From positions 71,054,001 through 71,118,000 of the forward strand of contig OZ076409.1 of assembly GCA_964187785.1 (NCBI GenBank): a stretch of 64,000 nt of DNA, read 5' to 3'. This DNA is from Amphiscolops sp. MND2022. Its lineage: Eukaryota. The notes under the pieces were generated by a model. It saw only the letters and a program-made list of their open reading frames with translations. It was not told the DNA's origin and searched no databases. Positions 1-32,423 of this stretch are shown in pieces. Position 1 is the stretch's first letter, and each line of letters starts with the position of its first letter. The position numbers and the translations under genes were made by a program.

Positions 1-904
1 TGCCATATATCAAAAGTAGGTTTAGACAAGGACCTATCGGAAACATGTGGTTTGGGACCCCCTGGACCAACCCGTTAGCAGGAAATGGGGCTTCCGGCCC
101 GTTTTTTTACGGTTAAAAACGGAAAATGGGCATTGAGGGGTAAATATCTCGTGAACGCGTGGAGCTACGGTGTCCTTCACTACTACAAGGTTTCATACCC
201 ATGATATGGTGCCTTCAGGGGGGCAAACAGATTTCCGCTATCTATCACCGTTACGGACTTGGCCCCCCAGCCTAACCGCTAAGTGACCGGAAATGTCACT
301 TTTTGAGCCCAAAGGGTCGGTCCCAGCCAGGGAACGTTAGGTAACTTATTGTAGTACTCATTGAGATGAGTTGGGGGACATAGTTTCAGTCACCCCCCGT
401 TACCCCTTAAGACCGGAAATGACCGTTATGTGAGTAAATTTGCCGTTTTTGTCCTATTTGAAGGGCATTTAGATGCGGAAGGAGTGGTAATAGGTGCTTG
501 GACACTATATGAGGTAAGGGAGGATATGAGGCGAGCATTCGGAAATAACAGTTATGTTGACCCCAAAGTCCCCCTGGTACCGTAAACGACCGGAAATGGT
601 CAAATTTTGTGTTTCTAGGGCACAAATGTTTGGTTTTTTAAGCATTAAAGTACAGGTTAGGTGTTTCGACGTTCTGCAGTAGTGAACATAGTCATGAAAC
701 CTTGTGGGGGGTAACGGTATACAGCACCGGAAGTCCAAACCGTTGGTCATAGAATAGGTTTTTGGTTACAAAATGTCTTCAGCCGTAGTTTTGTTGGTTG
801 AATTGTCATAATATCAACTATTATGGACTTGTAATGGAAGTAAAATTTTTTCACATTAGTTTCAGGGACCTCCAATGTTTCAGTCAACATAACCGTTACA
901 TTTT

Positions 905-948
905 GATAGCCTGTCAAGTTGGCCTGGTGTCAACTTGGAAGGGCTATC
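905..948 (+). other. Representative ~44-nt bulged hairpin of classes H, B and C
   Basis: GATAGCC..CAAGTTGGC-CTGGT-GTCAACTTG..GGCTATC; variants at 6113-6155 and 7732-7776 keep the pairing. Confidence 0.88.
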
Positions 949-1243
949 CTTCTAAAATCGGTATTCACGAATGTTTTTGGGTAGGTATATACTGCATTAG
1001 TACCAATTAGAGCTTCATCAACAGTTTACCAACGACAAAAACTATGTCCTGATGATTCCGTTATTAGAATAAAAGTTAACAAATTTTTGAAAAAGTTGAC
1101 TTTTTACATTTCAAATGTGTCCTAAATGCCAGGAAACCTATTTAAATAACAAAAGGAATTGATTGAAACTAAATATTAGGTTAAAAAAAAGTTACTTCGT
1201 TCCGTTATGGAAGCTGAAACGTCATATAATAGTGTAATTAACG

Positions 1244-1359
1244 TCAACGCCACATACTTTACATCAACGCCCACCGTCCGTAGGCATGCCGAGGCATGCC
1301 TTTCGACGACGTATACCAAATTCCACCCACACAACACCCTCGAGCGCGGTAGCAGCTAG
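1244..1359 (+). other. Representative conserved 3' module: paired TCAACGCC repeats, GGCATGCC palindrome, variable tail, CTAG
   Basis: TCAACGCC at 1244 and 1264; AGGCATGCC-GA-GGCATGCCT at 1282-1301, flanked by CGTC/GACG; CTAG at 1356-1359. Present before every joint. Confidence 0.92.
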
Positions 1360-2330
1360 GTGGCCGTGTCTTTTCGACGTGCTTTTGCATCGAGGAGTGG
1401 GTAGGGCCCCGCGACGACCTAGAAGAATTGGATGCTCACCGAAACGTGCAGAATTCTACGAGATCTCATAGTTTGAGCCATACGATTTTTCTGAAATTTG
1501 GCATGTGGCCTGGAATTGGTGAGTAGGTAAAACGTGTAGGAGGTGATTTTTCCCAAATTCCACTGTGAGACGAGATATGGGCAAATAACGGTCCCAAAAA
1601 TGGCAAAAATGCACTTTTTTCAAGTTTGTCAGCCCATATCTCGTTCCCAGGTGCCCGGAGCGGGACGCGTTAAGCTGATTATAAACTCTAGGGTGTTGAG
1701 GCTGTACGGTGAACTTGGGCCCGTTCCGATCCGACTTGTAGTCTTGGAGAAATAACGGTATTTTTGGGGAACCTTTTCTAACGGTCCAGCTTATCTTTGC
1801 CATTTTTTCGAAAATGTACTCGCCTAAAGGCCTCCCCCTGGCCGAATTTACTCCCAGCAAAACCATTTGGCCCTAAATACGGAGTTTCAGCGTTCCAGCA
1901 TTCCCGGGCGAAAAGTTGTGGGACTTGGAAAATTTTCAAAAATTTTCAAAAAAATTTTTTTTCGTTTTCCGGGCCCCCAATGAAGGGGAAACGACCCCCC
2001 AACCAGTATTTTGAGTGAATTCATGTGGAAAGCCCTTGTTTTGACGAGAAAAATACCGTTTAGAACATCTTTTTATCTTGACTCAACGTTGACTTATGAC
2101 GTTTTGAATGTGATGTAAGGATGTAGGAGGCATGTGATAAGTTGATGTTTTGAGTCTTTATCTCATATGAAAGCGGTTGAGATGCAAGCTGTCCTGCTCA
2201 AAACGTCTTTCGTTGTAATTTTCCAGTGCACCAATACCCTTTGGTGTCATATAAACATACTTTTTGTCGATATATTAACAATTTTAATGTATTTATTCCA
2301 ATTTTTATTATCTTATAACTCAAAACAGTT

Positions 2331-2373
2331 GAGTACATTTCATCTCCCTTTCGGGGGAGATGAGAATGTACTC
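2331..2373 (+). other. Representative ~43-nt bulged hairpin of the 1.3-kb classes
   Basis: GAGTACATTTCATCTCCC..GGGAGATGAGAATGTACTC with one extrahelical purine; seen in classes A, D and F. Confidence 0.88.
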
Positions 2374-2559
2374 GCTAAAGACCTAGCGCCATGACCAAAA
2401 GTTTGAAACCCACGTTTTTTATCTTCTTACAGACTTGTTTTTGTATTTTTTCGGAATTTTTTAAAAATTAATATACTTGAAATACATTACTTGACTTTAC
2501 TACTACAACCCACCTCCAACGACAACGCCCCCCTGCTTGCATCAACGCCCACCGTCCGT

Positions 2560-2579
2560 GGGCATGCCGAGGCATGCCC
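2560..2579. promoter_or_regulatory. Palindrome GGGCATGCCGAGGCATGCCC: hairpin and 19/20 match to the p53-family response element (representative of 42 copies)
   Basis: Two abutting decamers, GGGCATGCCG and AGGCATGCCC, against the consensus RRRCWWGYYY. The sequence match is direct; function is inferred. Confidence 0.4.
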
Positions 2580-3896
2580 TTCGACGACGTATGCCAAATG
2601 CCCAGTGCCACGCAGTCATTATCGCTAGGTGGCCGTGTCTTTTCGACGTGCTTTTGCATCGAGGAGTGGGTAGGGCCCCGCGACGACCTAGAAGAATTGG
2701 ATGCTCACCGAAACGTGCAGAATTCTACGAGATCTCATAGTTTGAGCCATACGATTTTTCTGAAATTTGGCATGTGGCCTGGAATTGGTGAGTAGGTAAA
2801 ACGTGCAGGAGGTGATTTTTCCCAAATTCCACTGTGAGACGAGATATGGGCAAATAACGGTCCCAAAAATGGCAAAAATGCACTTTTTTCAACTTTGTCA
2901 GCCCATATCTCGTTCCCAGGTGCCCGGAGCGGGACGCGTTAAGCTGATTATAAACTCTAGGGTGTTGAGGCTGTACGGGGAAGTCAGGCCCGTTCCGATC
3001 GGACTTGTAGTCTTGGAGAAATAACGGTATTTTTGGGGAACCTTTTCTAACGGTCCAGCTTATCTTTGCCATTTTTTCGAAAATGTACTCGCCTAAAGGC
3101 CTCCCCCTGGCCGAATTTACTCCCAGCAAAACCATTTGGCCCTAAATACGGAGTTTCAGCGTTCCAGCATTCCCGGGCGAAAAGTTGTGGGACTTGGAAA
3201 ATTTTCAAAAATTTTCAAAAATTTTTTTTTCGTTTTCCGGGCCCCCAATGAAGGGGAAACGACCCCCCAACAAGTATTTTGAGTGAATTCATGTGGAAAG
3301 CCCTTGTTTTGACGAGAAAAATACCGTTTAGAACATCTTTTTATCTTGACTCAACGTTGACTTATGACGTTTTGAATGTGATGTAAGGATGTAGGAGGCA
3401 TGTGATAAGTTGATGTTTTGAGTCTTTATCTCATATGAAAGCGGTTGAGATGCAAGCTGTCCTGCTCAAAACGTCTTTCGTTGTAACTTTCCAGTGCACC
3501 AATACCCTTTGGTGTCATATAAACATACTTTTTGTCGATATATTAACAATTTTAATGTATTTATTCCAATTTTTATTATCTTATAACTCAAAACAGTTGA
3601 GTACATTTCATCTCCCTTTCGGGGGAGATGAGAATGTACTCGCTAAAGACCTAGCGCCATGACCAAAAATTTGAAACCCACGTTTTTTATCTTCTTACAG
3701 ACTTGTTTTTGTATTTTTTCGGAATTTTTTAAAAATTAATATACTTGAAATACATTACTTGACTTTACTACTACAACCCACCTCCAACGACAACGCCCCC
3801 CTGCTTGCATCAACGCCCACCGTCCGTGGGCATGCCGAGGCATGCCCTTCGACGACGTATGCCAAATGCCCAGTGCCACGCAGTCATTATCGCTAG

Positions 3897-6695
3897 GTGG
3901 CGGGGGGCTGTCCCCAATAGAATATAGTGAGGTAGGGTAGGGTTCCCTACCGAACATTCAGTACTGAAGGACTCTTGTAGTATGAAAATTTTTCGATGTT
4001 TTGAGACCGATTTCGGATTCCACCCGTCAGAAGTTTATGATTTTTTGGCCCCCACCCAGATTTTGGGCACTGATCGCCCCCCACCAGGTTCCATACCCGT
4101 GGTTTCGTTGTGACGGGTACACGAGCGACCGTTAGGGGTCAATCAGGGGGTAAAATTTATAAAAGTGTGAATAACTTTTCCCCCCGTCGTTTTAGCAGGT
4201 CCGGTCACTAGTAAAGGTTTGTTGGGCATCATGCAGTGGGTACGGGGGGCCAAACAAAAATTTTCTATCATGCACCGTTACGGACTTGGCCCCCCGCCCA
4301 AACCGCTATTTTACCGGAAATTGCACTTTTTGAACGGGAAGGAGTCGTCTGAGCGCGGAGTCGTTTGGTAATGTTTTGTAGAGCATCTGAAGACGTGGTG
4401 GGGGACATGTAGTTTGCCGACCCCAGTTTACCCCTCGGACGGGAAATGACCGTTATGTTAGTTTTAAAATTGCCCCCCGTCAACTTTAACCGCTATTTCT
4501 GGTGTGAAGGAGTCGGAACAGCGTGTCGGGTGCTATATATCAAAAGTAGCTTTAAACAAGGACCTATCAGAAACATGTGGTTTGGGACCCTTTGAACGGA
4601 CCCGTTAGCCGGAAATAGGGTGACCGCCTCCTTTTTTTGGTGTTAAAACCGTAAAACGGGCATTAAAGTGAAATTATCTCGTGAACGCGTGGAGCAATCG
4701 TGTCCATCACTCCTACAAGGTTTCATACCCATGACATGGTGTCTTCAGGGGGGCAAACAGATCAGCGCTATCTATCACCGTTACGGACTTTGCCCCCCAG
4801 CCTAACCGCTATATTACCGGAAACTGCCCTTTTTGACCGGGAAGGAGTCGTCTGAGAGTGGAGTCGTTAAGTAATGTTTTGTAGAGCATCTAGAGACGTG
4901 TTGGGGGACATGTAGTTTGCCGACCCCTGTTTACCCCTCGGACGGGAAATGACCGGTATGTTAGTTTTAAAATTGCCCCCCGTCAACTTTAACCGCTATT
5001 TCTGGTGTGAAGGAGTCGGAATAGCGTGTCGGGTGCTACATATCAAAAGTAGCTTTAAACAAGGACCTATCAGAAACATGTGGTTTGGGACCCTTGGAAC
5101 GGACCCGTTAGCCGGAAATAGGGTGACCGCCCCCTTTTTCTGCGGTTAAAATTGTAAAACGGGCATTGAAGTGGAATTATCTTGGAAACGCGTGGAGCTA
5201 TAGTGTCCTTCACTACTACAAGGTTTCATACTCAAGATACGGTGCCTTCAGGGGGGAAAACAGATTACCGCTATATATCACCGTTACGGACTTGGCCCCC
5301 CAGCCTAACCGCTATGTTACCGGAAATGTCATTTTTTGAGCCAAAAGGGTTAGTCCCAGCGTGGGAACGTCAGGTAACTTTATGTAGAACTCAATGAGAC
5401 GAGTTGGGGGATATGGTTTCAGTCACCCCCCGTTGACCCGTTAGACCGGAAACGACCGTTATGTAGTGAAAAATGTAATTTTTATACTTTTTGAAGGCCA
5501 TTTAGGGCAGGAAGTATCGGTAATATGTCTTTGGACAGTATACAATGAAAGTTTTGGTGTGAAACAAGCAATCTGAAATATCCGTTATTATGATTCGGAA
5601 GTCACACTAACAGCGAAAATGACCGTTATGTAGTGAAAATTTTTTTCACATTTTTTTTGCTTTCGATAGGTCCTTCAAGCCAAGAAGTAGCTGTATTAGG
5701 TCTTTGGCCACTTTATGATGATTGTGGTGTTGTGAGATGACCGTACGAACTTGACCTTTATAATGCCCCTGAAGTTGCTGCGGCACGAGAAATTTCAGAA
5801 AGTTTGTCTTTTCTGTGTTTTGTTGGAATAAACATTTAATTTCATTAAACCAATGTGCATTCAGGGTGTTTAGAAAGCTTCAAGAAAAGAATTTAATAGG
5901 AAACATGGCGGTGAGAAATAACAAATTGCCACGTAAATCCAACCCCCGTTGGGGAATAAATGTAATAAATTGTTTTGGAAGTGCCAATCGACGTGTATTT
6001 GCGGATCATAGCCACGGTATTGTCTATTCGTGTTTCTTTTTGAAGACTTTGAACATTTTCACTTTATCAGCTTGAGGTTTTAACTCTATATGCTTAATAA
6101 CCGTTACAATATGATAGCCCTCAAGTTGACCTTGTGTCAACTTGAAAGGGCTATCCTTTCACAACTGCGCAGCAACAGTGTGATTGAGTGATTTAGTTAT
6201 TATCCAAGGCCAATTTGAACTTCAACAAGATTTTAACCACAATATTTAAAACTATTCATATGATTCTTTCAAAAGGGTAAATATTTAACTAATATTTGAC
6301 AAAAAAACTCCAACCTTTAATTTGTGGACCGAATAGTAGGAAAACCATGTTTCTTAACGTTGTTGGATGAAATTCAAAATGATGCTTTTAAAAGAATAAC
6401 AATTCTTGACACTATATATTTTTTCTATTTTCCAATAAACTATTTTTCCAAAAGTCTATTTTTCCAATAAACATTGTTGATTGATGCCCATTCATAGTGA
6501 CTGGAAAGTTTTACCAACTGTGGTGTTTTTTTTTAATCAGAGGTGAAACCGCTCCCTACCGTCGCATAATGTAATTCAAGCCGACGCCCACATGCCAACA
6601 TCAACGCCCACCGTCCGTAGGCATGCCGAGGCATGCCTTTCGACGACGTATGCCAAATCACGCCCCTGCGAGGTCAGTAAAGCGGTAGCGGCTAG
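3897..6695 (+). mobile_element. Singleton class B unit (2799 bp), diverged relative of class H with an extra 503-bp subrepeat
   Basis: Head GTGGCGGGGGGCTGTCCCC; body aligns by eye to class H; GATAGCC-type hairpin at 6113-6155; shared 3' module. Confidence 0.6.
4273..5460 (+). repeat. Internal direct repeat with 503-bp period (two full copies plus a diverging third)
   Basis: CACCGTTACGGACTT starts at 4273, 4776 and 5279, with long colinear similarity between the first two copies. Confidence 0.9.
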
Positions 6696-8084
6696 GTGGT
6701 TGGGGCGGTCCCCAGAACGCACAAGGAGGCGCGGGGAGGGTCCTGCGCCGACGTAGAATAATTTCATATAATACTAGTATCCTACATGGGTGTTTTAGAG
6801 GCGATTTTGGAATCTAACCGTAGGATTTGGATAATTTTTTGCATGCGGCCATAACTCGAAATTCTAAGAACTTTTTCCTACTGTCATTTTCCCCGCAAAT
6901 TGTTTTTTGTTGACTTATGGCCGAAAAACCGGAAATAACGTCCTTTTTAGACGTTATATCCGAAGTGTCGTCATAACTTTTTTCCAGGGCATGCTAGCGT
7001 TCTCGTTCACTTTTACACTTAGTTGCAGCATCTCAAAATACAACTGGTGGAAAATTTTGGTTGCATTCGGATCACCCCCCACCGAGATAGAAGGGTTCCC
7101 CCCTCCAGTTTTACCCCCCAAAGTTGCAAAATAGTCAAATTTGAGCATGAAGCCGAGGATTTAGCGTACCCGCACTCTCCTGATGTTTTGTTGTACGTAT
7201 TGGGGTCAATCTGACGGCATGTGTGGTTTTCACCCCCAACCCCCCCTTGGACCGGAAATGACACTTTTTTGTGTTTTTTGGCAGAATTTAGCCTTTTTCA
7301 TTATTAGGCAGTCGTTTTAGGGACTCCTAGCAGGATATCGAAATTGAAATACAACCTGATCACAACCCAGTGACAACATGTTGGCCACTTGGAGGTATCA
7401 TCATGACCGGAAGTGGGGTCAACCCCCCTTTTTGTGACCGCTTTTTGACCTTGTGCACCAAAATGCCAACATCTTGAGGCCTAATGAGGCATTCAAATCT
7501 GTACAAAGATAAAATGTTAGACAACCGAAGTCCCGGAAGATCTTTAGCATATACCGGAAGTTACCCCCCATGACCGGAAGTTACCCAATGTGACCGGAAA
7601 TGGTCCAAAAATAAATGTAAAGTTGAATTTTTCACTATTTCAAGACCACTTAATTGAAACTTTTCAATCTCAAAACTAGCGTACTGGCTTGTTTTGCTGA
7701 ATTTATGGAAATTGATAAGCTCTATCGCCCCCGATAGCCTTCGAAGTTGACCTTGCGTCAACTTTGGAGGCTATCGATAAAGAAAAATGAACAACAAAGT
7801 ACATTGTTGCTCTCGTTTTTCTCCCGTTGTTTTCCCTCAAACATTCTTGAGACATATACATGGCCGTTAGTGGAAATCAATATTTAGCCCATGTTATAGC
7901 TGGAGCAGCGAAGCGTTACACAGACTAGTGTGGTTTTGAAATCACACTATTTATATTAACAACTGACCGTCTTAGTCAACTCCACACACTCATACCAACG
8001 CCCACCGTCTGTGGGCATGCCGAGGCATGCCCTTCGACGACGTATGACGAATCCATTCCAAAGACACCCGCAGTCCTCAGCTAG
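6696..8084 (+). mobile_element. Singleton class C unit (1389 bp)
   Basis: Head GTGGTTGGGGCGGTCCCC; distinct body rich in ACCGGAAG; GATAGCC-type hairpin at 7732-7776; shared 3' module. Confidence 0.6.
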
Positions 8085-10648
8085 GTGCCGGTGTTTTTTT
8101 ACACAATGGGGGAAGTTGCGCGTGTGGGGAGGGTCCCTGACGCGCTCCCGGGATTTCGGATTTTTTAACCTTTACGTACCCATCAAAAATTTTGGGATCT
8201 CGAAAACTAGCCGTACGATTTGGCTGAAATTTGGCACACGTACCCCCCTCGGCACGGTGAAGATGATTCCCTACTGACGTTTTGCTCGCTAAACATTTTT
8301 TGTTGACCAAAATAACGGTTTTTGGGGTAAAATTTTCAACATTTTTTAAATTTCATCTTATATCTCGCCACGGGTACACGCTAGCGCTTCCAAACCTTGC
8401 TGACGAAAGTTTGCAAACTGTCTCAGGAATGCTGTGTGAAATTTTCAGCTCAATCGGACTTAAACTCGAGGAGATATAGCGTTTTTCCGGAGCGGGGGGG
8501 TTTCATTTTTCTAACGGTCCAGCTTATCTTTGCCATTTTTTCGAAAATGCACTCGCCTAAAGGCCTCCCCTGGCCGGTTTTATTCCCAGCAAAACCATTT
8601 GGCCCTAAATACGGAGTTTCAGCGTTCTAGCATTCCGGGGCGAAAAGTTGTGGGACTTAGAAAATTTCAAAAATTTTCAAAAAAATTTTTTTCCGTTATT
8701 TGGGCCCTCAAAGTGGGGGAAAAGACCCCCCAACCAGTAAAGCAAGTGAATGCATGTGGAAAGCCCTTGTTTAGACGAGAAAAATGCCGTTTAGAACGTC
8801 TTTTTATCTTAACTTGACATTGACTTTTGCCGTTTTGAAGGTGACCGTTAGATACGGAAAATTGATGTTTTGAGTATTTATCCCATCTGAAAGCCATTGA
8901 GATACAACATGTTTTGCTCAAAACGTGTTTCATTGCAGTTTCGCTGTCCATTATCACCCTTTGGTGTCTTTTCACGTAATTTTCGTTTCTATAATAACAA
9001 TTTTTTTGTGTATTTATTCATTTTTTCTCATCAAATAACTTGAAACAGTTGAGTACATTCCATCTCCCTTCCCGGGGGAGATGAGAATGTACTCGCTAAA
9101 GGTCAGGAACTACGGTCAATATCTTCCACAACACAAAAGGGATTGCAAATGGTTTCAGTTTGTCGCCGAAAACTTCTTTTTGCCCTCTGTGACTCGACAA
9201 AATGAACGTTTCTTACTTACTTTGAAACTCAGCATACCACAACTCATTTCTAACGTCAGCGCCCCCCTACTTGCATCAACGCCCACCGTCCGTGGGCATG
9301 CCGAGGCATGCCCTTCGACGACGTATACCAAGATATACCTGGAGCGCGGTAGCCGCTAGGTGCCGGGATTTCTATTCGATAAAGTATGTGGCGCGCCTTG
9401 GGTAGGGTCCCTTGCGCGCTCTTGGGTATGGTGTTCACCAGCTAGGAAATAGGGGTCGATTTTTCGGGATCTCCTAAACTAGCCACACGATTTGGCTGAA
9501 ATTTGGCACACGTATTCCCCTCGGCACGGTGAAGATGATTTCCTACTGACGTTTTTCCCGCAAAATTTTTTTTGTTGTCCAAAATAACGGTTTTTGGGGG
9601 AAAATTTTGAACTTTTTTTAAATTTCATCTTATATCTCGCCATGGGTTTACGCTAGCGCTTCAAAACCCTGCTAAAGAAAGCTTGCAAACTGTCTCAGGA
9701 ATGCGGTGTGAAATTTTCAGCTCAATCAGACTTAAACTCAGGGAGATATAGCGTTTTTCCGGAGCGGGGGGGTTTCATTTTTCTAACGGTCCAGCTTATC
9801 TTAGCCATTTTTTCGAAAATGTACTCGCCTAAAGACCTCCCCTGGCCGGTTTTATTCCCAGCAAAACCATTTGGCCCTAAATACGGAGTTTCAGCGTTCC
9901 AGCATTCCCGGGCGAAAAGTTGTGGGACTTAGAAAAATTCAAAAATTTTCAAAATTTTTTTTTTCGGTTTTCCGCCCTCCCCCCCGAGGGGAAAAGACAC
10001 CCCAACCAGTAATTTGAGTGAATTCATGTGGAAAGGCCATGTTTAGAGGAGAAAAATCCCGTTTAAATCGTCTTTTTATCTTTATTCAACGTTGACTTAT
10101 GACGTTTTGAAGGTGATGTTTGGAAGGTGTGAAGCACGTGAAAAGTAAACGTTATGAGTATTTATCTGATCTGAAAGCCATTGAGATGCAATCTGTTTTG
10201 CTCAAAACGTAATTCATATCCGTTTGGTAGTCAATCAACACCCTTTGTTATCATTTGACATCTTTTTTTGTTGATATAAGAAAAAATTTTGTGTATTTAT
10301 TCATTTTTTTCTCATCAAATAACTTGAAACAGTTGAGTACATTCCATCCCCCCTTCACGGGGGAGATGAGAATGTACTCGCAAAAAGCCCCAAACTACGG
10401 CCCTTACCTTCCTGAGCTACACAGTATAAAGATTGCATATTGGTTCCGACATTTTGATAGAGTTATATCTTGGTAATCTGTCTGGATATGCAGAAAAACC
10501 AGCACGTGCTTTTTTATACCAAGTTGCTTACAACGACAATTATTTTATATCAACGCCCCCATATTTATCAACGCCCCCCGTCCGTGGGCATGCCGAGGCA
10601 TGCCCTTCGACGACGTATACCAAGATATGTTCGAGCGCGTTAGCCTAG
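8085..10648 (+). mobile_element. Two class D units (1275 and 1289 bp)
   Basis: Heads GTGCCGG; body GATTTGGCTGAAATTTGGCACACGTA..CCCCTCGGCACGG; the two units have different variable windows. Confidence 0.6.
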
Positions 10649-13600
10649 GTGGCCGTGTCTTTTCGACGTGCTTTTGCATTGAGGAGTGGGTAGGGCCCCG
10701 CGACGACCTAGAAGAATTGGATGCTCACCGAAACGTGCAGAATTCTACGAGATCTCATAGTTTGAGCCATACGATTTTGCTGAAAGTTGGCATGTGGCCT
10801 GGAATTGGTGAGTAGGTAAAACGTGTAGGATGTGATTTTTCCCAAATTCCACTGTGAGACGAGATATGGGCAAATAACGGTCCCAAAAATGGCAAAAATG
10901 CACTTTTTTCAACTTTGTCAGCCCATATCTCGTTCCCAGGTGCCCGGAGCGGGACGCGTTAAGCTGATTATAAACTCTAGGGTGTTGAGGCTGTACGGTG
11001 AACTTAGGCCCGTTCCGATCCGACTTGTAGTCTTGGAGAAATAACGGTATTTTTGGGGAACCTTTTCTAACGGTCCAGCTTATCTTTGCCATTTTTTCGA
11101 AAATGTACTCGCCTAAAGGCCTCCCCCTGGCCGAATTTACTCCCAGCAAAACCATTTGGCCCTAAATACGGAGTTTCAGCGTTCCAGCATTCCCGGGCGA
11201 AAAGTTGTGGGACTTGGAAAATTTTCAAAAATTTTCAAAAAATTTTTTTTTCGTTTTCCGGGCCCCCAATGAAGGGGAAACGACCCCCCAACCAGTATTT
11301 TGAGTGAATTCATGTGGAAAGCCCTTGTTTTGACGAGAAAAATACCGTTTAGAACATCTTTTTATCTTGACTCAACGTTGACTTATGACGTTTTGAATGT
11401 GATGTAAGGATGTAGGAGGCATGTGATAAGTTGATGTTTTGAGTCTTTATCTCATATGAAAGCGGTTGAGATGCAAGCTGTCCTGCTCAAAACGTCTTTC
11501 GTTGTAATTTTCCAGTGCACCAATACCCTTTGGTGTCATATAAACATACTTTTTGTCGATATATTAACAATTTTAATGTATTTATTCCAATTTTTATTAT
11601 CTTATAACTCAAAACAGTTGAGTACATTTCATCTCCCTTTCGGGGGAGATGAGAATGTACTCGCTAAAGACCTAGCGCCATGACCAAAAGTTTGAAACCC
11701 ACGTTTTTTATCTTCTTACAGACTTGTTTTTGTATTTTTTCGGAATTTTTTAAAAATTAATATACTTGAAATACATTACTTGACTTTACTACTACAACCC
11801 ACCTCCAACGACAACGCCCCCCTGCTTGCATCAACGCCCACCGTCCGTGGGCATGCCGAGGCATGCCCTTCGACGACGTATGCCAAATGCCCAGTGCCAC
11901 GCAGTCATTATCGCTAGGTGGCCGTGTCTTTTCGACGTGCTTTTGCATTGAGGAGTGGGTAGGGCCCCGCGACGACCTAGAAGAATTGGATGCTCACCGA
12001 AACGTGCAGAATTCTACGAGATCTCATAGTTTGAGCCATACGATTTTTCTGAAATTTGGCATGTGGCCTGGAATTGGTGAGTAGGTAAAACGTGTAGAAG
12101 GTAATTTTTCCCAAATTCCACTGTGAGAGGAGATATGGGCAAATAACGGACCCAAAAATGGCAAAAATGCACATTTTTCAACTTTGTCAGCCAATATCTC
12201 TTTTCCAGGTGCCCGTAGCGTTCCGCACGTGGACATCAATATTGCTCAGCGCTGTTGGAGGAGTGCGTGGACAAATTTTGGTTTAAATCGGACTAAAACT
12301 TGACGAGAAATTAACGGTTTTTTGGGCGTTTCCGGGGTAAATTTTTTAACGGTCCAGCTTATCTTTGCCATTTTTTCGAAAATGTACATGCCTAAAGGCC
12401 TCCCCCTGGCCGAATTTACTCCCAGCAAACCCATTTGGCCCTAAATACGGAGTTTCAGCGTTCCAGCATTCCGGGGCGGAAAGTTGTGTGACTTGGAAAA
12501 ATTTCAAAATTTTTTCAAAAATTTTTTTCCCGTTTTCCGGGCCCCCAATGAAGGGGAACGACCCCCCAACCAGTATTTTGAGTGAATTCATGTGGAAAGC
12601 CCATGTTTGGAGGAGAAAAATGCCGTTTAGCACATCTTTTTATCTTAACTTGACATTGACTTATGACGTTTTGAATGTGATGTTAGGATATATGAAGCAT
12701 GTTAAAAGTTGAAGTTTTGAGTCTTTATCTCATCGGAAAACCATTGAGATACAAGCAGTTTTGCTAAAAACGATTTTCATTGTAGGTTAGCAGAGTATTA
12801 GTACACTTTGATGTCATTTGAGTATTTTTTTCTTCTATATAATAACTGTTTTTATGTATTTATTCCAATTTATCTCATCTTTTACCATCAAGCAGTTGAG
12901 TACATTTCATCTCCCTTTCGGGGGAGATGAGAATGTACTCGCTAAAAACCTAATGCTATGGCGCCAATGTTTGGATGGGAAGTTTTCTATGCTTTGAAAA
13001 AAGTTATTTTTAATTACTTGATTTTTTAAAACAATAATTAACATGAAGTACATTACTTGCTCCTACTACTACCACCATACATCTCTAACGTCAACGCCCC
13101 CTGCTTGCATCAACGCCCCATCGTCCGTGGGCATGCCGAGGCATGCCCTTCGACGACGTATGCCAAATGCCCAGTGCCACGCAGTCTTTTCCCGCTAGGT
13201 GGCCGTGTCTTTTCGACGTGCTTTTGCATTGAGGAGTGGGTAGGGCCCCGCGACGACCTAGAAGAATTGGATGCTCACCGAAACGTGCAGAATTCTACGA
13301 GATCTCATAGTTTGAGCCATACGATTTTTCTGAAATTTGGCATGTGGCCTGGAATTGGTGAGTAGGTAAAACGTGTAGAAGGTAATTTTTCCCAAATTCC
13401 ACTGTGAGAGGAGATATGGGCAAATAACGGACCCAAAAATGGCAAAAATGCACATTTTTCAACTTTGTCAGCCAATATCTCTTTTCCAGGTGCCCGTAGC
13501 GTTCCGCACGTGGACATCAATATTGCTCAGCGCTGTTGGAGGAGTGCGTGGACAAATTTTGGTTTAAATCGGACTTAAACTTGACGAGAAATTAACGGTT

Positions 13601-16600
13601 TTTTGGGCGTTTCCGGGGTAAATTTTTTAACGGTCCAGCTTATCTTTGCCATTTTTTCGAAAATGTACATGCCTAAAGGCCTCCCCCTGGCCGAATTTAC
13701 TCCCAGCAAACCCATTTGGCCCTAAATACGGAGTTTCAGCGTTCCAGCATTCCGGGGCGGAAAGTTGTGGGACTTGGAAAAATTTCAAAATTTTTTCAAA
13801 AATTTTTTTTCCCGTTTTCCGGGCCCCCAATGAAGGGGAACGACCCCCCAACCAGTATTTTGAGTGAATTCATGTGGAACGCCCATGTTTGGAGGAGAAA
13901 AATGCCGTTTAGAACATCTTTTTATCTTAACTTGACATTGACTTATGACGTTTTGAATGTGATGTTAGGATATATGAAGCATGTTAAAAGTTGAAGTTTT
14001 GAGTCTTTATCTCATCGGAAAACCATTGAGATACAAGCAGTTTTGCTAAAAACGATTTTCATTGTAGGTTAGCAGAGTATTAGTACACTTTGATGTCATT
14101 TGAGTATTTTTTTCTTCTATATAATAACTGTTTTTATGTATTTATTCCAATTTATCTCATCTTTTAACATCAAGCAGTTGAGTACATTTCATCTCCCTTT
14201 CGGGGGAGATGAGAATGTACTCGCTAAAAACCTAATGCTATGGCGCCAATGTTTGGATGGGAAGTTTTCTATGCTTTGAAAAAAGTTATTTTTAATTACT
14301 TGATTTTTTAAAACAATAATTAACATGAAGTACATTACTTGCTCCTACTACTACCACCATACATCTCTAACGTCAACGCCCCCTGCTTGCATCAACGCCC
14401 CATCGTCCGTGGGCATGCCGAGGCATGCCCTTCGACGACGTATGCCAAATGCCCAGTGCCACGCAGTCTTTTCCCGCTAGGTGGCCGTGTCTTTTCGACG
14501 TGCTTTTGCATCGAGGAGTGGGTAGGGCCCCGCGACGACCTAGAAGAATTGGATGCTCACCGAAACGTGCAGAATTCTACGAGATCTCATAGTTTGAGCC
14601 ATACGATTTTTCTGAAATTTGGCATGTGGCCTGGAATTGGTGAGTAGGTAAAACGTGTAGAAGGTAATTTTTCCCAAATTCCACTCTGAGACGAGATATG
14701 GGCAAATAACGGTCCCAAAAATCGCAAAATTGCACTTTTTTCAACTTTGTCAGCCCATATCTCGTTCCCAGGTGCCCGGAGCGGGACGCGTTAAGCTGAT
14801 TATAAACTTTAGGGTGTTGAGGCGGTACGGTGAACTTGGGCCCGTTCCGATCGGACTTGTAGTCTTGGAGAAATAACGGTATTTTTGGGAAATTTTTTCT
14901 AACGGTCCAGCTTATCTTTGCCATTTTTTCGAAAATGTACTCGCCTAAAGGCCTCCCCCTGGCCGAATTTACACCCAGCAAAACCATTTGGCCCTAAATA
15001 CGGAGTTTCAGCGTTCCAGCATTCCCGGGCGAAAAGTTGTGGGACTTGGAAAAATTTCAAAAATTTTCAAAATTTTTTTTTTAACGTTTTCCGGGCCCCC
15101 AATGAAGGGGAAACGAACCCCCAACCAGTATTTTGAGTGAATGCATGTGGAAAGGCCATGGTTAGAGGAGAAAAATGCCGTTTAGATTGTCTTTCTATTT
15201 TAACTTGACATTGACTTATGACGTTTTGAATGTGATGTTAGGATGTGTGAGGCATGTGAAAAGTTGATGTTTTGAGTCTTTATCTCATATGAAAGCAATT
15301 GAGATGCACGCTGTCCTGCTCAAAACGTCTTTCGTTGTAGTTTTCCAGTGCACCAGAACCCTTTGGTGTCATTTGAACATACTTTTCTTCGGTTTATTAA
15401 CATTTTTAATGTATTTATTCCAATTTTTATTATCTTATAGCTCAAAACAGTTGAGTACATTTCATCTCCCTTTCGGGGGAGATGAGAATGTACTCGCTAA
15501 AGACCTAGCGCCATGACCAAAATTTGAAGCGCACGTTTTGTATCTTCTTACAGACTTGTTTTTGTATTTTTTCGGATTTTTCTAAAAAATAATAATATAC
15601 TTGAAATACATTACTTGACTTTACTACTACATTCCACCTCCAACGTCAACGCCCCCCTGCTTGCATCAACGCCCACCGTCCGTGGGCATGCCGAGGCATG
15701 CCCTTCGACGACGTATGCCAAATGCCCAGTGCCACGCAGTCATTTTCGCTAGGTGGCCGTGTCTTTTCGACGTGCTTTTGCATCGAGGAGTGGGTAGGGC
15801 CCCGCGACGACCTAGAAGAATTGGATGCTCACCGAAACGTGCAGAATTCTACGAGATCTCATAGTTTGAGCCATACGATTTTTCTGAAATTTGGCATGTG
15901 GCCTGGAATTGGTGAGTAGGTAAAACGTGTAGAAGGTGATTTTTCCCAAATTCCACTGTGAGACGAGATATGGGCAAATAACGGTCCCAAAAATGGCAAA
16001 AATGCACTTTTTTCAACTTTGTCAGCCCATATCTCGTTCCCAGGTGCCCGGAGCGGGACGCGTTAAGCTGATTATAAACTCTAGGGTGTTGAGGCTGTAC
16101 GGGGAAGTCAGGCCCGTTCCGATCGGACTTGTAGTCTTGAAGAAATAACGGTATTTTTGGGGAACCTTTTCTAACGGTCCAGCTTATCTTTGCCATTTTT
16201 TCGAAAATGTACTCGCCTAAAGGCCTCCCCCTGGCCGAATTTACTCCCAGCAAAACCATTTGGCCCTAAATACGGAGTTTCAGCGTTCCAGCATTCCCGG
16301 GCGAAAAGTTGTGGGACTTGGAAAATTTTCAAAAATTTTCAAAAATTTTTTTTTTTCGTTTTCCGGGCCCCCAATGAAGGGGAAACGACCCCCCAACCAG
16401 TATTTTGAGTGAATTCATGTGGAAAGCCCTTGTTTTGACGAGAAAAATACCGTTTAGAACATCTTTTTATCTTGACTCAACGTTGACTTATGACGTTTTG
16501 AATGTGATGTAAGGATGTAGGAGGCATGTGATAAGTTGATGTTTTGAGTCTTTATCTCATATGAAAGCGGTTGAGATGCAAGCTGTCCTGCTCAAAACGT

Positions 16601-18302
16601 CTTTCGTTGTAACTTTCCAGTGCACCAATACCCTTTGGTGTCATATAAACATACTTTTTGTCGATATATTAACAATTTTAATGTATTTATTCCAATTTTT
16701 ATTATCTTATAACTCAAAACAGTTGAGTACATTTCATCTCCCTTTCGGGGGAGATGAGAATGTACTCGCTAAAGACCTAGCGCCATGACCAAAAATTTGA
16801 AACCCACGTTTTTTATCTTCTTACAGACTTGTTTTTGTATTTTTTCGGAATTTTTCAAAAATTAATATACTTGAAATACATTACTTGACTTTACTACTAC
16901 AACCCACCTCCAACGACAACGCCCCCCTGCTTGCATCAACGCCCACCGTCCGTGGGCATGCCGAGGCATGCCCTTCGACGACGTATGCCAAATGCCCAGT
17001 GCCACGCAGTCATTATCGCTAGGTGGCCGTGTCTTTTCGACGTGCTTTTGCATTGAGGAGTGGGTAGGGCCCCGCGACGACCTAGAAGAATTGGATGCTC
17101 ACCGAAACGTGCAGAATTCTACGAGATCTCATAGTTTGAGCCATACGATTTTTCTGAAATTTGGCATGTGGCCTGGAATTGGTGAGTAGGTAAAACGTGT
17201 AGAAGGTAATTTTTCCCAAATTCCACTGTGAGAGGAGATATGGGCAAATAACGGACCCAAAAATGGCAAAAATGCACATTTTTCAACTTTGTCAGCCAAT
17301 ATCTCTTTTCCAGGTGCCCGTAGCGTTCCGCACGTGGACGTCAATATTGCTCAGCGCTGTTGGAGGAGTGCGTGGACAAATTTTGGTTTGAATCGGACTG
17401 AAACTTGACGAGAAATTACCGGTTTTTTGGGCGTTTCCGGGGTAAATTTTTTAACGGTCCAGCTTATCTTTGCCATTTTTTCGAAAATGTACATGCCTAA
17501 AGGCCTCCCCCTGGCCGAATTTACTCCCAGCAAACCCATTTGGCCCTAAATACGGAGTTTCAGCGTTCCAGCATTCCGGGGCGGAAAGTTGTGGGACTTG
17601 GAAAAATTTCAAAATTTTTTCAAAATTTTTTTTTCCCGTTTTCCGGGCCCCCAATGAAGGGGAACGACCCCCCAACCAGTATTTTGAGTGAATTCATGTG
17701 GAACGCCCATGTTTGGAGGAGAAAAATGCCGTTTAGCACATATTTTTATCTTAACTTGACATTGACTTATGACGTTTTGAATGTGATGTTAGGATATATG
17801 AAGCATGTTAAAAGTTGAAGTTTTGAGTCTTTATCTCATCGGAAAACCATTGAGATACAAGCAGTTTTGCTAAAAACGATTTTCATTGTAGGTTAGCAGA
17901 GTATTAGTACACTTTGATGTCATTTGAGTATTTTTTTCTTCTATATAATAACTGTTTTTATGTATTTATTCCAATTTATCTCATCTTTTAACATCAAGCA
18001 GTTGAGTACATTTCATCTCCCTTTCGGGGGAGATGAGAATGTACTCGCTAAAAACCTAATGCTATGGCGCCAATGTTTGGATGGGAAGTTTTCTATGCTT
18101 TGAAAAAAGTTATTTTTAATTACTTGATTTTTTAAAACAATAATTAACATGAAGTACATTACTTGCTCCTACTACTACCACCATACATCTCTAACGTCAA
18201 CGCCCCCTGCTTGCATCAACGCCCACCGTCCGTGGGCATGCCGAGGCATGCCCTTCGACGACGTATGCCAAATGCCCAGTGCCACGCAGTCATTATCGCT
18301 AG
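10649..18302 (+). mobile_element. Six class A units (1269-1282 bp, three subtypes)
   Basis: Same class A head; internal joints at 11917, 13198, 14480, 15752 and 17022. Confidence 0.6.
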
Positions 18303-19584
18303 GTGGCCGGGAATTTTTTTTTCCACATAAATCTTTGCCACTGGGGTAGGGGCCCCGAGTGGCTGTTGTTCGGTTTACTTCCCATAGGATTTGCCCGCTG
18401 CGGAGACGATCTCAGAAACTAGCCATACGATTTGGCTCAAACTTGGCACAGAGCCTCCTTGAAAGATTATAAGAACTTTTTCCTATTGGCGTTTTTCGAT
18501 TGAAATATTTTATGTTGACCAAAATTGCGTTCAAAGTGTCCATTGTTGCGTAATTTTTGTCTTTTTCAACTTTGATGGTCCATAACTTTTTTTGAGATGC
18601 CCGGAGCGGGTCGCACGTGGTGAACAATATTGCTGGGCACTTCAAGAGCTGTCCGTAGACAAATTTTAGTCCAGATTGGAAAAAAATTGATGGAGTAATA
18701 GCCGCAAATCGCACACATTTTGTCGAATTTTTTCGGAACACTAGTCTATCTCTGCCGTTTTTTGCCCAGATTTTTTTCCAGGACCTCTCCTAAAGGCCTC
18801 CCCTGGCCGGTTTACCTCCCAGAAAAACCATTTGGCCTTAAATACGGAGTTTCAGCATTCCAGTATTCCCCGGGTAAAAGATAAATGACTTAGAATTTTT
18901 TTCGAAAAATTTTCAAAAATTTTTTTTCAACTTCAGGCCTCCCAAAGTCAGGAATTTTCCACACAACTAGTATTGCAAGTGAATGCATGTGGAAAGTGCT
19001 TGAATAGACAAGAAAAATGAGCTATTATACGACTCTGTAGCTTAATCTGACGTTGACTTATGACAATTTTAGTAAGAGCTTCCTATGTGAGAAAAAAATT
19101 CAAAAAGTGAAAATTGAATCTAAGTCTCATCCAAAACTCATCGGAATACGTTCAATTCACACCAGAGCGGTTCAATTCCAGTTGTATAGTGCAGCAACAC
19201 CATTCAAGGTCTTTTGGTCCATTTTTATAACTTTTGACACCGTCTTGTTCATCCGATAGCACAAAACAGTTGAGTACATTCCATCTCCCCCCTTGTGGGG
19301 GAGATGAGAATGTACTCGCTAAAAGTCAGGTACTATAGCGCCCATTTTTATTTATTCGACGCTAGTGATGCTATTGCACACGAATACAATAGTTTTGTCA
19401 AATCATGTTTGACATGATGAATCTTACTTTACCTTTAGTTTACGTTTACCTACTACTACAACATCGCAGCCCTAACGTCAACGCCACACACTCTCACTAA
19501 CGCCCACTGTCCGTGGGCATGCCGAGGCATGCCCTTCGACGACGTATGCCAAATAGCGCCACAGGGCGCAAACATTCCCGCTAG
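18303..19584 (+). mobile_element. Class F unit (1282 bp), diverged member of the 1.3-kb group
   Basis: Retains the central block AAAACCATTTGGCC.TAAATACGGAGTTTCAGC, the GAGTACATT hairpin (19272-19317) and the 3' module; the rest is strongly diverged. Confidence 0.6.
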
Positions 19585-22500
19585 GTGCCGGGATTTCTAT
19601 TCGATAAGGTATGTTGCGCGTGTGGGTAGGGTCCCTGGCGCGCTCTTGGGTATGGTGTTCACCAGCTAGGAAACAGGGGTCGATTTTTCGGGATCTCCTA
19701 AACTAGCCACACGATTTGGCTGAAATTTGGCACACGTACTCCCCTCGGCACGGTGAAGATGATTTCCTACTGACGTTTTTCCCGCAAAATTTTTTTTGTT
19801 GTCCAAAATAACGGTTTTTGGGGTAAAATTTTGAATTTTTTTTAAATTTTATCTTATATCTCGCCACGGGTTTACGCTAGCGCTTCAAAACCCTGCTAAA
19901 GAAAGCTTGCAAACTGTCTCAGGAATGCGGTGTGAAATTTTCAGCTCAATCGGACTCAAACTCAGGGAGATATAGCGTTTTTCCGGAGCGGGGGGGTTTC
20001 ATTTTTCTAACGGTCCAGCATATCTTTGCCATTTTTTCGAAAATGCACTCGCCTAAAGACCTCCCCTGGCCGGTTTTATTCCCAGCAAAACCATTTGGCC
20101 CTAAATACGGAGTTTCAGCGTTCCAGCATTCCCGGGCGAAAAGTTGTGGGACTTAGAAAATTTCAAAAATTTTCAAAATTTTTTTTTTCGGTTTTCCGCC
20201 CTCCCCCCCCGGGGGAAAAGACCCCCCAACCAGTAATTTGAGTGAATTCATGTGGAAAGGCCATGTTTAGAGGAGAAAAATCCCGTTTAAATCGTCTTTT
20301 TATCTTTATTCAACGTTGACTTATGACGTTTTGAAGGTGATGTTTGGAGGTGTGAAGCACGTGAAAAGTAAACGTTATGAGTATTTATCTGATCTGAAAG
20401 TCATTGAGATGCAACCTGTTTTGCTCAAAACGTAATTCATATCAATTTGGTAGTCAATAAACACCCTTTGTTGTCATTTGACATTTTTTTTTGTTGATAT
20501 AAGAAAAAATTTTGTGTATTTATTCATTTTTTTCTCATCAAATAACTTGAAACAGTTGAGTACATTCCATCCCCCCTTCACGGGGGAGATGAGAATGTAC
20601 TCGCAAAAAGCCCCAAACTACGGCCCTTACCTTCCTGAGCTACGCAGTATAAAGATTGCATATTGGTTCCGACATTTTGATAGAGTTATATCTTGGTAAT
20701 CTGTCTGGGTATGCAGAAAAACCAGCACGTGCTTTTTTATACCAAGTTGCTCACAACGACATTTATTTTATATCAACGCCCCCATATTTATCAACGCCCC
20801 CCGTCCGTGGGCATGCCGAGGCATGCCCTTCGACGACGTATACCAAGATATACTTCGAGCGCGTTAGCCTAGGTGCCGGTGTTTTTTTACACAAAGGGGG
20901 ATGTTGCGCGTGTGGGGAGGGTCCCTGACGCGCTCCCGGGATTTCGGATTTTTTAACCTTTACGTACCCATCAAAAATTTTGGGATCTCGAAAACTAGCC
21001 GTACGATTTGGCTGAAATTTGGCACACGTACCCCCCTCGGCACGGTGAAGATGATTCCCTACTGACGTTTTGCTCGCTAAACATTTTTTGTTGACCAAAA
21101 TAACGGTTTTTGGGGTAAAATTTTCAACTTTTTTTAAATTTCATCTTATATCTCGCCACGGGTACACGCTAGCGCTTCCAAACCTTGCTGACAAAAGTTT
21201 GCAAACTGTCTCAGGAATGCTGTGTGAAATTTTCAGCTCAATCGGACTCAAACTCGAGGAGATATAGCGTTTTTCCGGAGCGGGGGGGTTTCATTTTTCT
21301 AACGGTCCAGCTTATCTTTGCCATTTTTTCAAAAATGTACTCGTCTAAAGGCCTCCCCTGGCCGGTTTTATTCCCAGCAAAACCATTTGGCCCTAAATAC
21401 GGAGTTTCAGCGTTCCAGCATTTCTGGGCGAAAAGTTGTGGGACTTAGAAAATTTCAAAAATTTTCATAAAATTTTTTTTTCGTTATTTGGGCCCCCAAA
21501 GTGGGGGAAAAGACCCCCCAACCAGTAAAGCAAGTGAATGCATGTGCAAAGCCCTTGTTTGGACGAGAAAAATGCCGTTTAGAACGTCTTTTTATCTTGG
21601 CTCAACGTTGACTTATGACGTTTTGAAGGTGATGTTTGGAGGTGTAAAGCAAGTGAATAGTAAACGTTATGAGTATTTATCTGATCTGAAAGCCATTGAG
21701 ATGCAATATGGTTTGCTCAAAACGTAATTCATTGCAGTTTGGCAATCAATCAACACCCTTTGTTGTCGTTTGACATACTTTTTGGTTGTTATAATAAAAA
21801 ATTTTGTGTATTTATTCATTTTTTTCTCATCAAATAACTTGGAACAGTTGAGTACATTCCATCCCCCCCTTCCGGGGGAGATGAGAATGTACTCGCAAAA
21901 AGCACCGAACTACGGCCCTTACCTTCCCGAGCTACGCAGTATAAGGATTACATATTGGTTCCGACATTTTCATAGAGTTATATCTTGGTAATCTGTCTGG
22001 ATATGCCGAAAAATCAGCACGTGCCTTTTAATACCAAGTTGCTCACAACGACAATTATTTTATCTCAACGCCCCCATATTTATCAACGCCCCCCGTCCGT
22101 GGGCATGCCGAGGCATGCCCTTCGACGACCCGCACCAAAATATGCGTTAGCGCGTTAGCCTAGGTGCCGGGATTTTCTATTCGACAAGTTTGCGCGCCTT
22201 GGGGAGGGTCCCTTTGCGCGCTTTAAGATCCAGGTGTTTCCAACTCCTAAACGGGCATGTGATTTCGACGATCTCCTAAACTAGCCATACGATTTGGCTG
22301 AAATTTGGCACACGTACCCCCCTCGGCACGGTGAAGATGATTTCCTACTGACGTTTTTCCCGCTAAACATTTTTTGTTGACCAAAATAACGGTTTTTGGG
22401 GTAAAATTTTCAACTTTTTTTAAATTTCATCTTATATCTCGCCACGGGTACACGCTAGCGCTTCCAAACCTTGCTGACGAAAGTTTGCAAACTGTCTCAG

Positions 22501-23434
22501 GAATGCTGTGTGAAATTTTCAGCTCAATCGGACTTAAACTCGAGGAGATATAGCGTTTTTCCGGAGCGGGGGGGTTTCATTTTTCTAACGGTCCAGCTTA
22601 TCTTTGCCATTTTTTCGAAAATGCACTCGCCTAAAGGCCTCCCCTGGCCGGTTTTATTCCCAGCAAAACCATTTGGCCCTAAATACGGAGTTTCAGCGTT
22701 CAAGCATTCCTGGGCGAAAAGTTGTGGGACTTAGAAAAGTTCAAAAATTTTCAAAAATTTTTTTTTCCGTTATTTGGGCCCCCAAAGTGGGGGAAAAGAC
22801 CCCCCAACCAGTAAGGCAAGTGAATGCATGTGCAAAGCCCTTGTTTAGACGAGAAAAATGCCGTTTAGAACGTCTTTTTATCTTAACTTGACATTGACTT
22901 TTGTCGTTTTGAAGGTGACCGTTAGATACGGAAAATTGATGTTTTGAGTATTTATCCCATCTGAAAGCCATTGAGATACAACATGTTTTGCTCAAAACGT
23001 GTTTCATTGCAGTTTCGCTGTCCATTATCACCCTTTGGTGTCTTTTCACGTAATTTTCGTTTCTATAATAACAATTTTTTTGTGTATTTATTCATTTTTT
23101 TCTCATCAAATAACTTGAAACAGTTGAGTACATTCCATCTCCCTTCCCGGGGGAGATGAGAATGTACTCGCTAAAGGTCAGGAACTACGGTCTATATCTT
23201 CCACAACACAAAAGGGATTGCAAATGGTTTCAGTTTGTCGCAGAAAACTTCTTTTTGCCCTCTGTGACTCGACAAAATGAACGTTTCTTACTTACTTTGA
23301 AACTCAGCATACCACAACTCATCTCTAACGTCAGCGCCCCCCTACTTGCATCAACGCCCACCGTCCGTGGGCATGCCGAGGCATGCCCTTCGACGACGTA
23401 TACCAAGATATACCTGGAGCGCGGTAGCCGCTAG
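19585..23434 (+). mobile_element. Three class D units (1288, 1291, 1271 bp)
   Basis: Joints at 20872 and 22163; three different head windows on similar bodies. Confidence 0.6.
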
Positions 23435-28900: not shown

Positions 28901-29811
28901 TACAGCTCAATCAGACTTAAACTCAGGGAGATATAGCGTTTTTCCGGAGCGGGGGGGTTTCATTTTTCTAACGGTCCAGCTTATCTTTGCCATTTTTTCG
29001 AAAATGCACTCGCCTAAAGGCCTCCCCTGGCCGGTTTTATCCCCAGCAACACCATTTGGCCCTAAATACGGAGTTTCAGCGTTCCAGCATTCCCGGGCGA
29101 AAAGTTGTGGGACTTAGAATTTTTCAAAAATTTTCAAAAATTTTTTTTCCGTTATTTGGGCCCCCAAAGTGGGGGAAAGCACCCCCCAACCAGTAAAGCA
29201 AGTGAATGCATGTGGAAAGCCCTTGTTAAGACAAGAAAAATGGCGTTTAGAATGTCTTTTTATCTTAACTTGACATTGACTTTTGTCGTTTTGAAGGTGA
29301 CCGTTAGATACAGAAAATTGATATTTTGAGTATTTATCCCATCTGAAAGCCATTGAGATACAACATGTTTTGCTCAAAACGTGCTTCATTGCAGTTCCGC
29401 TGTCCATTGACACCCTTTGATGTCTTTTGACGTAATTTTCTTTTCTATAATAACAATTTTTTTGTGTATTTATTCATTTTTTTCTCATCAAATAACTTGA
29501 AACAGTTGAGTACATTCCATCTCCCTTCCCGGGGGAGATGAGAATGTACTCGCTAAAGGTCAGGAACTACGGTCTATATCTTCCACAACACAAAAGCAAT
29601 TGAAAATTGTTTCAGTTTGTCGCAGAAAACTTTTCTTTTTGCATTCAGTGACTCGGCAAAGTGAACGATTTTGACCCATATTGAACCTTACTTTACCACA
29701 ACTCATCTCTAACGTCAACGCCCCACACTCATATCAACGCCCACCGTCCGTGGGCATGCCGAGGCATGCCCTTCGACGACGTATGCCAAACACAAACGCG
29801 GTAGCCGCTAG
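25970..29811 (+). mobile_element. Three class D units (1289, 1288, 1265 bp)
   Basis: Joints at 27258 and 28546. Confidence 0.6.
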
Positions 29812-32366: not shown

Positions 32367-32423
32367 GTGCGGGGGGGTAACCCCAACAAATATATTGGAG
32401 GATTCGGGTAGGGTCCTGAATCC
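32367..32423 (+). other. Representative 5' structured head (two hairpins)
   Basis: GGGG-GTAA-CCCC, then GGATTCGGG-TAGGGT-CCTGAATCC. Stems differ between classes but still pair. Confidence 0.8.

Follow-up and report, generated by a model that had tools for sequence, protein, structure and literature searches.

The 64,000-nt stretch of contig OZ076409.1 analysed here (positions 1..64000, plus strand), which we call the window, is built of units lying head to tail, each opening with two hairpins whose stems change from family to family. Which molecule folds in this way, and why do such different units meet so exactly? The original prediction saw selection on a folded plus-strand molecule, took that molecule to be RNA and considered self-cleavage at the joint between units. 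We uphold the plus-strand fold and find the RNA unsupported. In the reading that we favour, with a probability of about 0.8, the two hairpins form the 5' end of Helitron-like transposons inserting 3' of a host CTNG and likely act, as single-stranded plus-strand DNA, as the origin signal for the RepHel protein of these elements.

Units and extent of the array

The window contains 41 complete units of 1,263 to 2,799 nt in a single orientation, falling into 11 whole-unit clusters. All 42 heads within it start with GTG(G/C), at 42 CTAG|GTG(G/C) joints, and a search for inverted self-matches in the window found none. The units are non-coding, with a longest open frame of at most 161 codons. Each combines a variable two-hairpin head with a common 3' palindromic box located tens of bases before the terminal CTAG, and heads and tails are shuffled between units. 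Exact copies of the box number 4,919 across the 1.07 Gb of the genome; among the first 100 listed, most lie in arrays and some are solo. Coordinates are collected in Table 1.

The array begins near 70.455 Mb, where the unique sequence before it has CTAG as its last four bases. Element DNA in one orientation made up 98 % or more of each of the 13 ten-kb samples taken from 70.8 to 75.55 Mb; the sample at 76.15 Mb reached 74 % and five samples outside the array at most 4 %. All 34 RepHel matches located from 70.56 to 76.46 Mb have plus-strand orientation, and none has an internal stop in the matched part. These samples, rather than a continuous read through the region, indicate a single-polarity array of about 6 Mb.

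Table 1. Positions in the window of the class-A unit, its upstream neighbour and selected class-H and class-K features
Feature	Position	Strand	Comment
3' subterminal palindrome of upstream unit, conserved, ~55 nt before CTAG	1283..1300	+	putative terminator hairpin
Terminal CTAG of upstream unit; next unit starts directly after	1356..1359	+	putative nick site CTAG^GTG
Class-A non-autonomous 5' head: GTG(G/C) start, hairpin 1, hairpin 2	1360..1412	+	
Complete class-A unit, 1,269 nt, non-coding	1360..2628	+	the 12-kb autonomous element aligns with its 3' end and some of its body
Hairpin 1, class A: short, variable, weak	1365..1381	+	best hairpin of the family, p 0.24 alone
Hairpin 2, class A: GTGGG 1397-1401, loop TAGGGC 1402-1407, CCCGC 1408-1412	1397..1412	+	
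Duplicated class-H head, 93 nt, ends at internal CTTG, then second identical head	45281..45373	+	
GGATCC variant of class-H hairpin-2 3' arm	60576..60581	+	T-A changed to T.G
Class-K head: two wobble hairpins, without (T/G)AGGG loop	62496..62559	+	

Some units carry further internal structure. Positions 2331-2375 of the window form a long palindrome in a short-unit body, with copies in other class-A units, and the surrounding region is common to classes A and D. The class-B sequence at 4265-5464 has internal direct repeats of ~500 nt that are 87 % identical and resemble the satellite-like cores of non-autonomous Helitron derivatives; weaker copies are found in class H. The 93-nt class-H head duplication is exact (window 45281-45466), is also present in locus L159 near 8,000 and resembles the multiple 5' termini of FoHeli. 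It may result from early termination followed by re-insertion.

Pairing, loop and strand of the head hairpins

The window and the fetched loci, some of which overlap, gave a set of 263 head occurrences, of which 122 are distinct; at 85 % they form 41 families. The head search selected for AGGG loops. The hairpin-2 stems quoted in the original prediction for classes A, B, C, D, F and H were all located in the window. For hairpin 2, arms were swapped between families around a 6-nt loop, with G.T and A.C pairs scored alike. The families' own arms score 20.8 compared to 16.4 +/- 0.43 for swapped arms, a difference matched in 0 of 100,000 permutations (41 families, relatedness ignored). The two arms therefore covary, and many stems are fully rewritten around a (T/G)AGGGN loop of 6 nt, as had been predicted. 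The loop itself was said to be fixed: it is present in 41 of 42 window heads, but TTGGGT and TCGGGT variants elsewhere in the array mean that it is not fully so.

Hairpin 1 is a stem of 4-5 bp near nucleotides 6-10 of the head. At this fixed position its pairing is likewise retained through sequence change (0/20,000 permutations, 41 families, kinship ignored). A perfect 4-bp stem is found in 22 of the 41 families, and allowing G.T completes 11 more where A.C completes only 2. Taken alone, hairpin 1 reaches p<0.05 in just 5/41 families, so it is significant only as a set. A MAFFT alignment limited to 11 window heads, with pairs scored in fixed columns, gives a covariation of 0.175 compared to 0.209 for a slid control.

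Which strand folds is less evenly answered. Plus-strand G-T wobbles had been singled out, and the GAATCC to GGATCC change placed near 60577 is where it was reported (Table 1). Among hairpin-2 wobbles we counted 28 G.T and 6 A.C, a clear excess against a 50:50 expectation (p 2e-4) that weakens against swapped arms (p 0.06); many of these G.T pairs occupy one position and may be inherited. Plus-strand deamination was considered as their source and rejected, with C>T changes (15) showing no bias over G>A (24). Equal folding of the minus strand had been named as evidence against a plus-strand molecule. Folding z-scores are indeed alike on both strands, with the plus strand favoured in 20/41 families for hairpin 2 (DNA) and hairpin 1 more stable on the minus strand in 24/41, but G.T exceeds A.C. 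RNA energies favour the plus strand for hairpin 2 in 34/41. Individual heads vary: class A is among the weakest folders (DNA z +0.56, no better than shuffles), and class K folds into the two wobble-containing hairpins described for it (DNA z -2.69). Taken together, the retained pairing, the surplus of G.T over A.C and the lack of a C>T bias that could mimic it argue for selection on a folded plus-strand molecule.

GNRA loops had been taken to favour RNA. Class H accounts for all 10 window heads (of 42) with the GGGG-GNRA-CCCC hairpin, and when the best hairpin 1 of each of the 41 families is taken, no loop is GNRA; the loops exist as described, but being confined to that family they are no general feature. 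Both G.T pairs and stable GAAA or GTAA loops occur in single-stranded DNA as well. Two further roles of the loop, IS608-like guide pairing and a G-quadruplex, receive no support from the loop variants elsewhere in the array.

Ends, insertion target and the RepHel element

The elements run from GTG(G/C) to CTNG. In the 264 kb around the window, the tails at 147 joints are CTAG (143), CTGG (3) and CTTG (1), and solo copies end in CTAG, CTGG or CTTG and follow a host CTNG. One solo copy lies inside an LTR retrotransposon, where the two flanks are joined exactly at each of 11 empty paralogous sites: the element was inserted after CTTG with no target duplication and no loss. In one family, 31 of 45 heads follow the tail of another element and 14 have unique flanks, 13 of which end in CTNG (9 CTTG, 4 CTGG, read by eye from the list). 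In an independent head set, with the spurious matches L075 and L090 left out, CTNG precedes 6 of 9 heads with unique flanks and is missing before the other 3. The CTNG rule rests on these three sets, a separate logo being circular since its head search required CTNG.

In 12 of 15 solos, the left tetranucleotide is not the one with which the element itself ends, and it is thus host DNA. Beyond the element end, the second base is T in 38 of 41 cases and the first is A, G or T, never C, in 43. The CTNG left flank and these bases together read as the target CTNG^[A/G/T]T, with which the joint CTAG^GT agrees. Inside the units (29 short-unit clusters), CTNG[A/G/T]T is found 58 times on the plus strand compared to 131.5 expected, and 99 times on the minus strand compared to 132.5; plus-strand depletion is expected if the motif is cut on that strand. 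One solo hinted that the tail of an element and its target flank match over a longer stretch, but this is not general (2.29 versus 2.17 matches, 2,945/10,000). Another solo copy (L063) sits within tRNA-like sequence, after CTAG.

At 25-37 kb upstream, the array contains a 12,049-nt unit that shares head and tail with the short units and encodes a 2,327-aa RepHel (Pfam Helitron_like_N E 4.9e-8 and PIF1 E 1.3e-8, both above cut-off) with conserved HUH and YxxxY motifs. Its C-terminal tail is SLX1-like, the family profile matching SLX1 with E 8.8e-10, and a C-terminal GIY-YIG was found in 9 of 12 relatives scanned. The predicted fold of ORF2 (pLDDT 82; pLDDT 34 and unusable when predicted without an alignment) has its best Foldseek matches in RPA, LEF-3 and CST (E 7e-5, TM only 0.25-0.28), and a language-model search also indicated POT1 and CTC1; these models suggest an RPA-like protein. 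The short units have the first ~750 and last ~100 bases in common with this 12-kb element, and unit 42037 is 90 % identical to it over nt 106-774.

The genome contains 121 RepHel matches. A CTNG|GTG head lies upstream in 7 of 11 other RepHel loci, and 4 of 11 are without a head in the DNA fetched; the Rep regions of these 11 are 31-48 % identical to that of the 12-kb element. The lineage is widespread (300 clusters at E<=1e-30). The ends of relatives from outside this genome were sought in viral contigs, where none was found, and in three metagenome contigs, which at ~1 kb are too short. Some autonomous elements (L134, L141, L028, P0020) carry extra genes or domains, including ~200-aa ORFs between the RepHel and RPA-like genes and, in one relative, an OTU protease domain.

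Could the head nevertheless fold as RNA, as a ribozyme or as the 5' structure of a retro-element or SINE-like transcript, with the joint as its cleavage site? The plus-strand G.T excess, the plus-strand preference of hairpin 2 in RNA energies (34/41) and the class-H GNRA loops would all agree with it. We nonetheless hold this to be highly improbable: the joint coincides exactly with a boundary of DNA insertion without target duplication, the same head starts a DNA transposon whose long form encodes an HUH-helicase and not a reverse transcriptase, and GNRA loops occur in one of 41 families. The Rfam search suggested with the original prediction returned 0 matches at gathering score in the window (by E-value, three weak sub-threshold matches, none on a head). 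Neither the RNA nor its self-cleavage at the joint is supported. Hairpin 2 might otherwise be read in double-stranded DNA, as a palindromic binding site or a cruciform, in keeping with the similar z-scores of the two strands and with the double-stranded donors that Helraiser requires in cells (PMC5876387). A protein reading sequence would, however, keep the arms conserved, whereas here the stems are rewritten with pairing kept, the conserved loop is asymmetric and G.T outnumbers A.C, which makes this reading improbable.

If the hairpins are instead a single-stranded origin, RepHel would bind them folded on the plus strand, nick at the CTNG^GTG origin and stay on the 5' G. Its Pif1 helicase would peel off the plus strand, to be coated by the RPA-like protein, and a second nick at the terminal CTNG past the 3' hairpin would close a circle with the junction CTAG^GTG. 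Every chromosomal joint would then copy the circle junction, terminator plus origin. HUH enzymes are described as cutting single-stranded DNA with fixed polarity; for Helraiser, only the plus strand is reported to be cut and moved, the circle junction is cleaved, the 5' end is essential and the 3' hairpin is the terminator (PMC5876387).

The elements have a two-tyrosine HUH Rep fused to Pif1 and insert precisely without duplication, as in the Helitron superfamily. With Helitron1/HLE1, of which Helraiser is an example, they have in common an HUH and Pif1 RepHel, a separate downstream RPA-like gene, a 3' hairpin followed by a CTRR-like end, insertion without target duplication and the occurrence of tandem arrays (PMC11417382, PMC5876387, PMC6431247), although the palindrome here is ~35-55 nt from the end, farther than usual, and weak in some families. 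Unlike HLE1, which is described as starting with TC and inserting between A and T (PMC11417382), they start with GTG(G/C) and insert after CTNG and before [A/G/T]T; their ends may be CTTG or CTCG, and they have two 5' hairpins and a C-terminal GIY-YIG. Helraiser is not matched with the single RepHel protein, and with the profile only weakly, ranked below bacterial Pif1s.

Helitron2/Helentron/HLE2 elements such as FoHeli and Chlamydomonas Helitron-1N1 are closer at the 5' end, having a terminal hairpin with compensatory changes, longer targets (TTTT^ and TNAT^A) and short duplicated 5' termini (PMC3627910, PMC5148889), so that these features alone are not new. Their asymmetric terminal inverted repeats of 8-15 bp are absent from the 103 units in which we looked, where the longest inverted match is 4-7 nt (mean 4.8, compared to 5.3 in mismatched pairs). 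DUF6570 was absent from the 14 RepHel proteins scanned, and no AP endonuclease was found. In the published accounts, HLE2 has these domains, a T start and T^T insertion (PMC3627910, PMC11417382), unlike the elements here. Judged by the defining features in these descriptions, the elements would be Helitron-like and yet fit neither HLE1 nor HLE2.

Their end grammar is closest to that of bacterial IS91, a helicase-free TnpA system quite unlike the 2,327-aa RepHel with Pif1, and the likeness is one of end grammar only. IS91 is described as an HUH rolling-circle element without target duplication whose CTTG or CTCG target adjoins the origin end; oriIS carries two imperfect palindromes, and terIS one palindrome and a CTCG cleavage site (PMC13181058). 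A tetranucleotide target of this type at the origin end and palindromes at both ends are found here. Replitrons, too, are eukaryotic HUH elements and insert with constant orientation 3' of a short target, but they are reported to have a helicase-free Y1 Rep and, at their termini, short direct repeats (PMC10288648); the elements here have a Y2 RepHel and a left tetranucleotide that is host DNA. Tandem and centromeric Helitrons have been described from plants, bats and nematodes. Among the titles and abstracts returned by searches of the openly accessible full-text literature, none described a CTNG-targeting Helitron or mixed-family arrays of this scale.

Stacking of families at the joints

For one tail type, 1,870 of 1,942 ends are followed by a GTG(G/C) head, although bare target sites occur at ~5 per kb of genome, or millions genome-wide. 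Within 144 short units, 204 internal plus-strand sites are unused, and nested insertions at an internal CTTG are rare elsewhere (L117). Unrelated families, and autonomous elements of 12-15 kb, meet at base-exact joints, and class K is stacked like the other classes despite lacking the loop. Neighbours at least 98 % identical are rare (5/145), so the array is not the product of simple tandem copying. Neighbours with the same head family, at 74/145 compared to 33 by chance, indicate that local copying or recombination contributes.

One explanation for the stacking is that the elements target joints actively, which we lean towards. Since a joint would copy the circle junction, integration there is likely much favoured over a bare CTNG, and with CTNG at the end of each element every joint offers a target. 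If joints are preferred, new copies of any family would slot into them and regenerate them, and polar arrays would grow. Alternatively, the same elements with the same hairpins may not aim at joints, and the arrays may result from rolling-circle concatemers, unequal crossing-over and the loss of insertions elsewhere. The excess of same-family neighbours, the mixing of heads and tails between units, the 7 of 102 near-identical pairs whose next neighbours are near-identical too, and the tandem Helitrons reported in plants and bats (PMC5876387) are in line with this alternative. Concatemers, however, give identical neighbours, yet so few reach 98 %; class-H units next to each other are no more similar than those far apart (0.900 versus 0.888); the base-exact joints bring together unrelated families and long autonomous elements; and small dispersed arrays are mixed from the first unit onward. 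We therefore consider arrays formed without aiming unlikely.

Taking active joint-targeting together with the end grammar, we narrowly favour a wider picture. The elements may be a third Helitron group, with a RepHel bearing an SLX1-like tail, IS91-style ends and their own folded terminator-origin junction as target, of which dozens of families, both autonomous and non-autonomous, slot like cassettes into one another's joints and form a self-renewing single-polarity array of ~6 Mb, possibly one that also serves as a chromosomal structure. A comparison of which array end is older gave medians of 0.984, 0.980 and 0.984, with only two last units and with several flanks and one end mis-called.

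What stands out is the end grammar and the self-stacked array, more than the hairpins alone. Exact ends, a target rule and a likely structural origin signal are now given for a widespread RepHel lineage; since it fits neither described Helitron group, tools that rely on TC...CTRR or on inverted repeats would annotate it wrongly. To our knowledge, 5'-end recognition and target choice of Helitrons are poorly understood, and 41 naturally rewritten hairpin versions together with intact transposases make 5'-end recognition directly testable. If joint-targeting is true, a DNA transposon can give rise to megabase satellite-like arrays without tandem duplication, and it may offer a basis for site-directed insertion tools.

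Two loci hint at targeting near existing ends. In L117 (458-2958), an element from a different family has split a class-A-like element at the CTTG that directly follows hairpin 2, and in L093 a second insertion lies 16 nt beyond a tail.

The array is zoned by family. Its middle (L155-L161, C1 71.45-73.3 Mb) consists mostly of 2.0 and 4.8 kb families with TTGGGT or TCGGGT loops, and few RepHel matches lie between 71.6 and 73.5 Mb. More intact RepHel clusters are located near contig ends at C2 102.0-103.9 Mb and C3 2.4-3.9 Mb, each apparently as two blocks of opposite orientation. At ~57-71 kb downstream of the window end (L054-L055), a class-H unit is broken by ~12 kb of foreign non-coding DNA that carries a 420-nt inverted repeat.
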